A DNA stretch of 64,000 bases, taken from an uncultured delta proteobacterium. Lineage in GTDB: Bacteria; Myxococcota; Myxococcia; Myxococcales; Anaeromyxobacteraceae. Positions 15,001 through 18,000 of this stretch are shown piece after piece (the first letter of the stretch is position 1; the number at the start of each line of letters is the position of its first letter). The DNA lies in NCBI GenBank assembly GCA_963828255.1, contig CAWHDZ010000017.1:128001-192000 (forward strand). The letters are read 5' to 3'. The position numbers are program-made.

Positions 15001-18000
15001 GGGCGGCCCGGACGAGCAGCTCGCGGGCCTCCCCGTCGTGTGCGAAGCCGGCGATGGCCTCCGGCCCCCACTCGAAGAAGCGGTCGATCTCGCCCCGGGC
15101 CAGCTTCAGGCGGGCCCCCTCGGCGACGTTGCCGGTGCAGAGCCCCAGCGTCGCGTCCGCCGCCGCGAGCGAGGTGAGCACCTCCACCACCCCGGGCAGG
15201 ACGCGAAAGCCGGGCCCCTGGATCTCCTCGCGCAGCGCGAGCACGTAGGCCTCGAGGATCCGGTCGCAGAGCGCGTCGTCGAAGCGGCGCCCCAGGGCGA
15301 CCAGCAACTCCCGGACGATGAGCCGGTCGGTCATCCCGTCGAGCCGGAGGCCTGCGAGCGCGTGCTCCACCCGGCCGAACTCCCCGGTGAGGACCCGCTC
15401 GAGCGACCGGCGCCCCGCGCCTGCGGCGTGGACGAGGGTGCCGTCCACGTCGAAGAGGATCACCCGGCGCCTGGCGCGCCCCGGGCTACGAGAAGAGGGC
15501 ATCCACGAACTCGTCCGGGTCGAAGGGACGGAGGTCGGCGACCTTCTCGCCGACGCCGACGTAACGGACCGGGATGCGGAGCTCGTCGGAGATCCCGATG
15601 ACCACGCCGCCCTTGGCGGTTCCGTCGAGCTTGGTGAGGGCGATCCCGGTGACCCCGAGCGCCTCGTGGAACTGGCGGGCCTGGGCGATGGCGTTCTGCC
15701 CGTTGGTCGCGTCGAGCACGAGGAGGACCTCGTGGGGAGAGCCGGGCATCGCCTTGTCCAGCACCCGCTTCACCTTCTTCAGCTCCTCCATGAGCGGGAG
15801 CTTGGTGTGGAGCCGTCCGGCGGTGTCGAGGAGCACGACGTCCACCTTCTCCTCGACGCCGCGCTTCACCGCCTCGAAGCAGACGCTGGCCGGGTCGGCG
15901 CCGTCCTTGCCACGGACGATCGGCGCGCCCACCCGCTCGGCCCAGACCTCGAGCTGCTCGCCGGCCGCGGCGCGGAAGGTATCACCGGCGCCGAGCAGCA
16001 CCCGGTGCCCCGCCTGTCCGAGCTTGGAGGCCAGCTTTCCCACCGTGGTGGTCTTTCCCGAGCCGTTCACGCCCACCACCATGATCACGCGGGGGCGGTC
16101 CGCGCCGATGGTGAACTCGCGGTTGGCGCCGGCCGGTCCTCCCAGCGAGACGATGCGGGAGATCTCCTGCCGCAGCGCCGCCTTCAGCTTGGCCGGATCG
16201 TCGAGCTCGCGCCTCTTCACACGCTCCCGCGCCGACTCCAGCAGTGCGGTCGCGGTCTTCACGCCGATGTCGGCGGTGAAGAGGATCTCCTCCATCTCGG
16301 CCAGCGTGGACTCGTCCACCTGGCGCCCGCCGCCGAAGATCCCCTGGAGCCGGGCCATGAAGCCGCCACGGGTCTTCTCGAGACCGGCCGCCAGCGTGCG
16401 CCCGGCCTCGGCCTCGGCGCGCCGCCGCTTCTCCTCCTCCTCGCGAAGGCGGGCCTTCTCGGCCTCCCGGGCGAGTCGCGCCTGCTCCTCCCGGGCGAGC
16501 CGCTCCTCCTCCTCGCGCTCCAGGCGCCGCCGCTCCTTCTCGAGCCGCTCGGCCTCCTTTTTCTGCCGGTAGTCCTCCTTCTTGCGGGCCTCCTCGGCGG
16601 CCGCGTCGGCGACTGCGTCGGCCTCCCGGCGGGCGACCTCGGCTTCCCGGTGCGCGTCCCTTGCGGGGGCGGGGGGCGCTGGAGGGGGGGCCGGGCGCGG
16701 AACCGGCCGCGCGGGCGGGAGCGCGGCTTCGGGAAGGGGCTCCGGCTCGACCCCTTCCTCCCGCTCGAGTTCGCGCTCGATCTCCTGCTGGGAGACCGGT
16801 GGTTCGACGGGCGCGGCGCCCCGCTTGCGGAACATGCGCAGGCCGGCGACGACGAAGAGCGCCACGAGCGCGGCGATGACGGCGGCGCCGATCAGGTCGG
16901 ATGTGGCGAAGGCGAGCGGAATCGGGAGCACGAGGACCCTGCGAAGGAGGGGAAAAATGCCGGGAAAGCGAGACCATATAGGTCCCGGTCCGGCGCGGTG
17001 TCAACGCGAGTCGGAGTCGGAGTCGGAGTCGGAGTCGGAGTCGGAGTCGGAGTCGGAGTCGGAGTCGGAGTCGGAGTCGGAGTCGGAGTCGGAGTCGGAG
17101 TCGGAGTCGGAGTCGGAGTCGGAGTCGGAGTCGGAGTCGGAGTCGGAGTCGGAGTCGGAGTCGGAGTCGGAGTCGGAGTCGGAGTCGGAGTCGGAGTCGG
17201 AGTCGGAGTCGGAGTCGGAGTCGGAGTCGGAGTCGGAGTCGGAGTCGGAGTCGGAGTCGGAGTTCGTGTTCCGGCTCCCTTTCGGGTGGGGCCTGCCTGG
17301 AGGCGCACGCCCCGCGCCAGCCCGCGGTCCTTCGCGTGTGGATCCCGCGTCGGGCTGTCACGGCGCCTGCGCCGGATGGGGCAAACCCCACCCGCAAAGG
17401 AGCCGCAGATGGCCTTCATCGCATTCGAAACCTCGCTCGAGCTCATCCGGTCGCTGGACCAGCCTCTCGCCATCCTCGACCGGCGCGACACGGACCTCGC
17501 CAGGCAGCTGAGGCGCGCAGCGGCCTCGGTCTCCCTGAACCTCAGCGAAGGCAATCGGCGCAACGGCAAGGACCGCATCCACCTGTGGCGGGTGGCTGCC
17601 GGAAGCGCGGACGAGGTCGCCGCTGGCCTGCGCGTCGCGGAGGCCTTCGGCTACCTGCAGGCCACCGCCATCGCGAAGTCCCTCGCGCTCACCGACCGCC
17701 TGCTGGCGATCATCTGGCGCCTGACGCATTGACGACGCAGGAGATGCGCTCGCATCGCCCACGGACCACGGTCACGGCCCGCCCTACGCCGCCGCCGACC
17801 TGCTGCTCCCGGAAAGCCTCACCGACACCAGCTTCGACACCCCCGGCTCCTCCATCGTCACCCCGTACAGCGTGTCCACCGTCTCCATGGTCCGCTTGTT
17901 GTGGGTGATGAGGATGAACTGCGAGGCCTTCGCCATCTCCTTCACCAGCTCGTTGTACCGGCCGACGTTCGCATCGTCGAGCGGCGCGTCCACCTCGTCG

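Follow-up and report, generated by a model that had tools for sequence, protein, structure and literature searches.

The question raised by this locus is what kind of element lies between ftsY and smc in an uncultured member of the Anaeromyxobacteraceae, how it came to be there, and what it has done to the genes beside it. We analysed it in a window of 64,000 nucleotides (the whole stretch of DNA under study, contig CAWHDZ010000017.1, positions 128,001 to 192,000), which belongs to a genome of 4.31 Mb in 40 contigs with 71% GC, and compared its six copies in this genome with those of relatives. The copies occupy sites that are shared between species, flip, are homogenised within genomes and are lost cleanly; their protein and leader are conserved, and host gene ends that abut them have lost C. 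We lean towards reading the element as an old, non-autonomous cassette, akin to the ORF-bearing intervening sequences (IVS) and lodged behind host stop codons, which would evolve by conversion and slippage, be silenced by its own leader and provoke a selected loss of C in its neighbours.

The cassette of the window is bounded on the left by the host gene ftsY (15486..16931, minus strand; TIGR00064 above its cut-off), whose start lies beyond the array. A putative ftsY promoter on the same strand (16975..17004; TTGACA, 17-18 nt, TATAT) was read from the sequence; a consensus promoter scan did not call it, and 17 of 21 genomes have a match to its pattern after smc. Three nucleotides outside its -35 box begins the left arm, which tandem-repeat detection gives as (GAGTCG)x42.7 with 100% match (17008..17263, plus strand). 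The leader hairpin follows on the plus strand (17272..17405), delimited by its fold and by covariation in 20 sequences; its outer stem pairs the Shine-Dalgarno sequence (SD) with an anti-SD, and its inner domain (17303..17372, plus strand), defined by comparison with relatives, holds a near-invariant bulged helix. The SD itself, AAAGGAG (17396..17402, plus strand), is predicted to be paired (unpaired probability 0-0.27 per base) and precedes the 107-aa four-helix-bundle ORF (17409..17732, plus strand; PF05635/TIGR02436), which was identified by profiles, a structural model and dN/dS. After a right-arm stub of 24 nt, read from the sequence as a CCGTG repeat type (17760..17783, plus strand), the cassette abuts the stop codon of smc (17784..21356, minus strand; TIGR02168 above its cut-off); in G006 and G010, too, repeats of the stub's type come after the stop codon of smc.

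An array, a hairpin leader and a 107-aa gene in six copies are what the preliminary description of this DNA had reported, and repeat detection, folding and profile searches confirm all of these. To its three parts a fourth has to be added, a second, inverted array 3' of the gene, which is long in relatives and a stub in the window copy. The arrays are real, although they are not built from the single 6-nt unit that had been proposed: on the gene strand two of the six copies have GGAGTC, two have GACTCC, which is its reverse complement, and the remaining two have CCGCAA-like or 13-nt units; three copies combine a G-rich with a C-rich array in series, a spacer standing between them. The hairpin is likewise conserved, but the SD described as ending it is paired inside the stem rather than free after it. 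All long perfect microsatellites of the genome are indeed cassette-borne: the five longest arrays (28-43 copies of 6 nt, with exact copy numbers as in this assembly) all lie in cassettes, and the next-longest perfect tandem array measures 44 bp. In relatives, arrays on both sides of the gene form inverted arms, which at three loci span 83-201 nt with 77-79% complementarity. The window copy has only the leader stem and the 24-nt stub after the stop codon, with no stem around the ORF; since no copy in this genome has more than a stub of a right arm, recombination cannot at present go by pairing of two arms here.

As a protein, the gene product is an unremarkable PF05635 member. It scores 51.4 bits against a cut-off of 33.8 with PF05635 (E 1.4e-13) and 54.5 bits against a cut-off of 24 with TIGR02436 (E 1.2e-14), is basic (pI 10.2) and is predicted to form four helices (pLDDT 97), the model matching 2GSC and 2RLD (Xcc0516, BT_0352) and the DGR Avd structures 4DWL/8UB7 with TM 0.82-0.88, so that its earlier assignment to the 23S IVS/Avd four-helix bundles is upheld by both profiles and fold. 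A median dN/dS of 0.19 (356 pairs, 28 copies) indicates purifying selection. Its close homologs come from Anaeromyxobacteraceae or uncultured deltaproteobacteria, within a very large family (15,935 clusters with E no higher than 0.001); outside DGRs, we know of no function for PF05635-type proteins. Among the closest known systems is the ORF-bearing 23S rRNA IVS (S23p; Coxiella, Leptospira, Xanthomonas Xcc0516), with which the cassette shares protein family and fold; the complementary ends that enclose the gene in IVS are seen at the three relatives' loci and not in the window copy. In the available part of its description, the ORF-bearing IVS of Coxiella has terminal inverted repeats and variable-number heptamers before the ORF (PMC4990558), a further likeness to the short tandem repeats found here. 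Unlike these IVS, the cassette lies outside rRNA, behind the stop codons of protein genes and in several copies, has long microsatellite arms and a separate leader that hides the SD, flips, converts and scars its neighbours. It is a variant of the ORF-bearing IVS design that departs from it in lacking the rRNA location.

The leader region 17264-17411 folds as one hairpin of -86.6 kcal/mol (z = -3.5), a value that 0 of 200 shuffles equalled. In an alignment of 20 related sequences, all kin, 97% of cells are paired, two-sided change occurs in 6 of 37 pairs (matched by 0 of 500 shuffles) and 21 pairs never vary; leaders that have the inner bulged helix keep it near-invariant, and the short-leader copies of G003 and G011 lack it. 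Distant homologs have unrelated leaders which, read by eye, likewise bury the SD. An Rfam search of 16800-18000 gave no family and two weak miRNA matches far below the cut-off. The leader motif was found in this genome in the six cassettes only, had six matches in metagenomes (three cassettes and three chance matches) and none in the viral contigs searched; one RNA run contained short, low-depth contig pieces on the cassette. Leaders of the IS200/IS10 type block translation of read-through RNA. The cassette leader resembles them in pairing its SD with upstream sequence in a hairpin and differs in having no transposase downstream and no matching Rfam family; by analogy, it may block translation of host read-through RNA. 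As Avd binds a stem-loop with flipped-out bases, according to the available part of that report (10.1101/2023.10.23.563531), the bulged inner helix would be a natural ligand, and the protein, probably a pentamer judging from homologs, may bind this helix or the repeats.

The distribution of the copies speaks to their age. All six lie between protein genes, five of them between convergent ones, and none in rRNA, as had been stated. The cassette gene is matched in 17 of the 41 genomes searched and in none of the other 24, which include 4 of the 13 in the genus. Placing 29 close copies found in relatives on this genome by their flanks put 21 at one of its own six sites (smc-ftsY, TPR-hemW, dapF, agmatinase/arginase, polA-divIVA and the nadA junction), each of which is filled in at least two other species. 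The glgA site accounts for three more copies and for one shared junction (this genome has a 30-bp gap free of arrays there); two copies lie where it keeps a hairpin relic and three at private sites. The six genomes with a cassette or relic at the smc site form one clade (SH-aLRT 98); outside it, the site is empty in four genomes. Filled and empty alleles between species exist at smc, hemW, polA and glgA, the same four sites at which orientation differs between species, and in some genomes cassettes also decay or vanish cleanly.

The 99.3% identity between the copies on contigs C17 (the window) and C38 was reproduced (711 of 716 nt, with 4 of the 5 differences within 10 nt), but the recent mobility deduced from it was not: both sites are old, smc-ftsY and TPR-hemW being filled, by a cassette or its relic, in several further species. 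In a tree of 32 ORFs (3 degenerate ones left out), the C17 and C38 copies (A and B of G000, this genome) are sisters, as are the two counterparts in the sister species G010 (92%), with 87-88% between the pairs. Because the sites are shared and the G010 pair is likewise mutually closest, we read the pair as the product of concerted evolution of residents, best explained, from sequence comparison, by gene conversion between old copies. The same tree groups by genome the copies B/E/G of G001 (93-95% alike) and A/E/G of G006 (97-98.5%), near-identical trios which occupy different subsets of sites, and four copies of G003 and G002; at sites C, D and F, inheritance follows the site, G000 and G010 being 89-97% alike there. 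What stands of the proposed mobility is a discrete multi-copy cassette, with replacement, inversion, loss and occasional new sites over longer times. The cassette thus appears to be an old resident that evolves in concert, with replacement and inversion, and not a fresh insertion. Mechanistically, copies would overwrite or invert each other by homologous recombination; each arm being the reverse complement of the other, a donor could pair either way round, and slippage may expand and purify one array unit into a perfect microsatellite. Swapped flanks were also observed (TPR-cassette-smc in G010, smc-cassette-glgA in G002), which could be crossovers or misassembly through the arrays, these genomes being fragmented.

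Elsewhere in the phylum, the family behaves in part differently. PF05635 is matched in 50 of 121 genomes (phylum and own), some with 27-35 matches, and 6- or 7-nt periodic flanks occur at most phylum loci examined. Sharp-ended relatives that seem to have spread recently are found there: in G082, at 7 of 7 loci among the matches listed (10 of 27), the right end is an inverted repeat of about 30 nt ending in CTAG, with a mirror left end at 2 of these 7 loci and an IS5-type transposase end upstream at 3, and in G125 the copies (6 of 10 taken) have similar ends with IS1182-like pieces inside. Given these ends, true transposition probably happens in some lineages. MITEs and REPINs are non-autonomous elements moved by DDE or RAYT transposases, and the cassette resembles them in having no mobilising enzyme of its own, a palindromic design and extragenic insertion, its distant relatives also in their sharp end. 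The cassette could accordingly be an element of this kind, mobilised in trans by a DDE transposase with CTAG as its target, often a stop codon, in either orientation, the shared sites being hot spots hit repeatedly and the arrays subterminal repeats. At smc and polA, several empty sites have cTAG at their end, and this genome has one IS5-type and one RAYT-like gene (these family names, like IS1182-like, are our assignments from sequence motifs). We nevertheless consider this rather unlikely for the copies studied here, at which no defined terminal inverted repeat or target duplication was seen; they carry a conserved protein gene, occupancy of the smc site tracks the species tree, and the transposase pieces of G082 and G125 may be secondary insertions.

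That the arrays and hairpin are instead a domesticated host module, acting at convergent junctions as a terminator in both directions or as a processing signal, under control of the protein, would suit the convergent setting of five copies and the low dN/dS, and, in the main text of the Xanthomonas study, intergenic heptamer repeats near stop codons are transcribed (PMC4692102). We judge it improbable, as the many genomes with no match, four of them in the genus, the clean loss or decay of copies and their free orientation all speak against it. The paired intergenic 7-8-mer repeats of Geobacter (PMC2700814) and of Xanthomonas and Nostoc (PMC4692102) are short, tandem, arranged in inverted pairs and near stop codons like the arrays; unlike these, they are treated in those main texts as regulator sites or G-quadruplexes. 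A term search of the two main texts, whose supplements could list such genes, linked no repeats to the cassette gene. A mere assembly artefact, in which polishing or collapse produced the perfect arrays and the near-identical pair, has in its favour that long perfect repeats are hard to assemble and that the genome scored 6.6% contaminated. It is hard to credit when the flanks keep ancestral gene order, other species and metagenome contigs have similar long arrays at these sites, and contigs of one DNA run, which may be the source sample, match 17364-17523 and 17719-17919 exactly.

The most unexpected property of the cassette lies in its neighbours. For 3016 genes (gene calls made here) we took the share of C among four-fold degenerate third positions over the final 50 codons; the genome-wide median is 0.50. 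In the smc of the window these codons (17787..17936, minus strand) reach 0.17 against 0.59 in the gene interior, the thirteenth most C-poor end of the 3016. The nine measurable cassette neighbours rank 1, 4, 5, 9, 13, 35, 816, 963 and 1585, six of them within the 35 most C-poor gene ends, and a tenth, short gene stands at 0.16. The same contrast holds between orthologs of smc, hemW and polA from 25 genomes of the family (five orthologs with truncated or frameshifted ends, the smc of G013 and the split hemW of G002 were left out): those with a cassette lie at 0.10-0.26 in 12 of 12 cases, those without average 0.46 (n=44). Of the three lowest "empty" orthologs, the smc of G001 (0.16), the only low one within the genus, adjoins a relic of the cassette gene 3' end, the polA of G017 (0.23) a short gene-less array, and the polA of G021 (0.19) a few repeat-like units only. 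Within single genomes, smc with a cassette stands at 0.14 in G002 and 0.21 in G003, and empty polA at 0.55 and 0.44. Values are intermediate in nested genomes after cassette loss (G013 hemW 0.30 and polA 0.31, G000 glgA 0.30), and an independent metagenome contig of site D gives 0.18.

The change is directional and local. C>G outnumbers G>C by 251:27 in the last 20 codons and the ratio is about 1:1 by 180-240 codons (the pairs are non-independent), the gradient fading over some 200 codons. Scarred tails use AGG at 41% against 8% and TTG at 17% against 3%, while A and T at four-fold sites stay flat (1.3% + 2.1% against 1.3% + 1.9%), third-position C>T is not raised (2/126 against 22/759) and tails diverge no faster than interiors between sister species. 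The cassette ORF is itself unskewed and keeps its Cs, and the 5' end of ftsY shows no C shift. The neighbours nadA, dapF, divIVA (even where an array abuts it) and the small gene at site D are unscarred (0.43-0.66), as are those of degenerate cassettes (G002 TPR 0.48, G003 arginase 0.45) and G011's site (0.52). Across the phylum, where genes were called with a model that had this genome as its training set, a fall of more than 0.2 was seen at only 6 of 29 measurable ends, against a background of 8.5%, L176 and L212 being the strong cases. Genes facing an unrelated multi-copy HNH family show a mild shift (10 of 10 at 0.28-0.41), which differs from convergent genes at p 6e-4; because the genomes are kin, the p-values given here overstate. 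A strong hairpin after the stop codon (no trend over 847 genes) and a GTAG-type REP (neighbours 0.46 against 0.50, p 0.07) were rejected as causes; replication strand was dropped as the cause of the one-sidedness, the skew being too weak to assign strands. A second palindrome with the CCCACCCC motif, beside which 5 of 5 gene ends lie at 0.10-0.29 here and 9 ends, more weakly, at 0.28-0.64 in relatives, proved to be an internal piece of the HNH gene family. In the literature covered (few subscription journals, no supplements) we found no description of this class of cassette or of the codon scar, and the scar beside the cassettes is a new observation.

As to its cause, Rho loading sites are C-rich, and the genome encodes Rho and RNase III. 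The insert may disturb transcription at the gene end, and selection could then drive the host strand C-poor, either because sense RNA escapes Rho or because antisense RNA comes to load it. We favour such Rho-linked selection on RNA composition over local hypermutation because C is lost by any synonymous route, to AGG or TTG too where nothing else is open to it, while tails are no more divergent than interiors, and because the cassette ORF is unskewed and an unrelated HNH insert has a similar, weaker effect. Against selection, the loss is fast for a weak force, about 4-5 times interior synonymous change by a rough estimate, and site D, where a terminator-like hairpin ought to stop read-through coming from the partner gene, nonetheless has a scarred agmatinase/arginase gene; a consensus scan found no outward promoter. 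The steep gradient and this speed make strand-specific hypermutation a serious rival, if to our mind a distinctly less probable one: R-loops or stalled polymerase at the arrays would expose the non-template strand, cytosine damage with error-prone bypass would turn C into G, A or T, and the same lesions would drive conversion and array growth. The polarity fits single-stranded tails pointing at the element, and the genome has a match to PRK05672, presumably DnaE2. Such damage accords poorly with flat A and T, with C>T that is not raised, with the unskewed cassette interior and ftsY 5' end and with array-adjacent genes that are spared. A third possibility, that the Avd-like protein recruits a reverse transcriptase in trans and that cDNA of read-through RNA converts the locus, C being miscopied as DGRs miscopy A and stuttering making the arrays, draws on several likenesses. 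The fold matches DGR Avd (TM 0.82-0.86 to 4DWL and 8UB7), whose stem-loop binding was noted above, and a basic protein again stands next to a conserved bulged RNA hairpin; C is lost on the RNA-sense strand, decaying from the 3' end; and Bdellovibrionota homologs (28-46% identity), which have short inverted repeats, lie beside tRNA/tmRNA 3' ends at 16 of 24 loci. Unlike DGRs, however, the cassette shows only about 10% identity to Avd, change that hits C and not A, no template/variable repeat in what was examined (no genome-wide search for such a pair was made) and a leader confined to six cassettes. Profile searches agree with the earlier statement that this genome (G000) has no RVT_1, and none was found in G001 and G006 either (the three are 99, 90 and 95% complete), the genomes where homogenisation is clearest, which makes the retro route very improbable; its RVT_1-type form is largely refuted, and the cassette ORF, which such cDNA would have to copy, keeps its Cs. 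A tblastn search of 50,697 phage records gave no match and a plasmid search one distant match.

In conclusion, the cassettes provide a large protein family with a defined candidate ligand, in the form of the repeats or the bulged hairpin, and every long perfect microsatellite of this genome belongs to one of them. As near-identical residents, they are substrates for chromosome rearrangement and traps for assemblers. The codon scar means that, over the lifetime of a few species, an inserted element reshapes essential host genes at their silent sites, and it marks sites that once held a cassette, whether it arises through termination-linked selection or local mutation. A bolder reading, which we put forward only tentatively and think unlikely, is that protein, hairpin and microsatellite arms make up an undescribed class of enzyme-free selfish cassette, spread by recombination, that removes C strand-specifically from the last 200-500 nt of neighbouring host genes, among them essential ones such as smc and polA. 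If true, a C-removing cassette would be a reverse-transcriptase-free counterpart of DGR mutagenesis, and its scar would date both present and past occupancy.

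The genome under study holds a second multi-copy gene family, which we take to carry an HNH motif, with about 23 matches by tblastn (for example C38:51479-51967, C27:148165-148659 and C16:17154-17738). Its genes are accompanied by GTAG-type palindromes, with an ACCGGT palindrome lying internally, and mild C depletion (four-fold sites of the last 50 codons) is seen in the host genes that face them. At two relics of this family that lack the gene, C25:97490 and C40:112815, the flanks are strongly C-depleted (0.10-0.21). A RAYT-like Y1 transposase gene, matching NF047646 with a score below the cut-off, runs on the minus strand from C3:20650 downwards (L218:1117-1782), at a convergent junction and preceded by short repeats; the end of the host gene upstream is likewise C-poor (0.22). 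This gene could be a mobiliser, or it could be further cargo of the same design.

A hairpin relic without a gene lies at C15:158745-158832, beside a C-poor host gene end (0.19), and the corresponding site in the relative G001 is filled by two divergent cassette genes with one array common to both. The relic contains, at C15:158786, one of exactly four occurrences in the whole genome of a 14-bp palindrome. The remaining three are at C3:47151, in the spacer separating the paired arrays of cassette site F, at C16:17790, adjoining a member of the HNH family, and at C28:55460. The palindrome is possibly an operator. Read by eye, spacers in relatives hold palindromes resembling it.

Within the window, a Rho gene occupies 38389-39702 on the minus strand, and a second, Rho-like gene is found elsewhere in the genome at C15:34691-35770 (472 bits, below the cut-off). 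From motifs recognised in the translation, we take 21434-35254 to be a type II secretion/pilus-like cluster and 51586-59396 a flagellar-export/type III-like one. Imperfect 18-bp coding repeats lie at 49618-49802, at the C-terminus of a presumably RNase E/G-like gene.

Among relatives, many cassettes enclose two four-helix-bundle genes, head-to-head or tail-to-tail, in a single arm pair (L155, L161, L163, L165, L172 and L198-L212; G001:C1; G017:C5). Flanks are swapped between cassette sites at L049 in G010 (TPR-cassette-smc) and L007 in G002 (smc-cassette-glgA), reflecting either rearrangement via the cassette or misassembly. The distant homologs of Bdellovibrionota (L063-L086) adjoin tRNA or tmRNA 3' ends in 16 of 24 loci, linked to them by short 7-mer repeats that are inverted about a palindrome. 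In G082 and G125, relatives of the cassette occur at high copy (L178-L197), with inverted repeats ending sharply in CTAG, and these are the best place to look for the mobilising enzyme.
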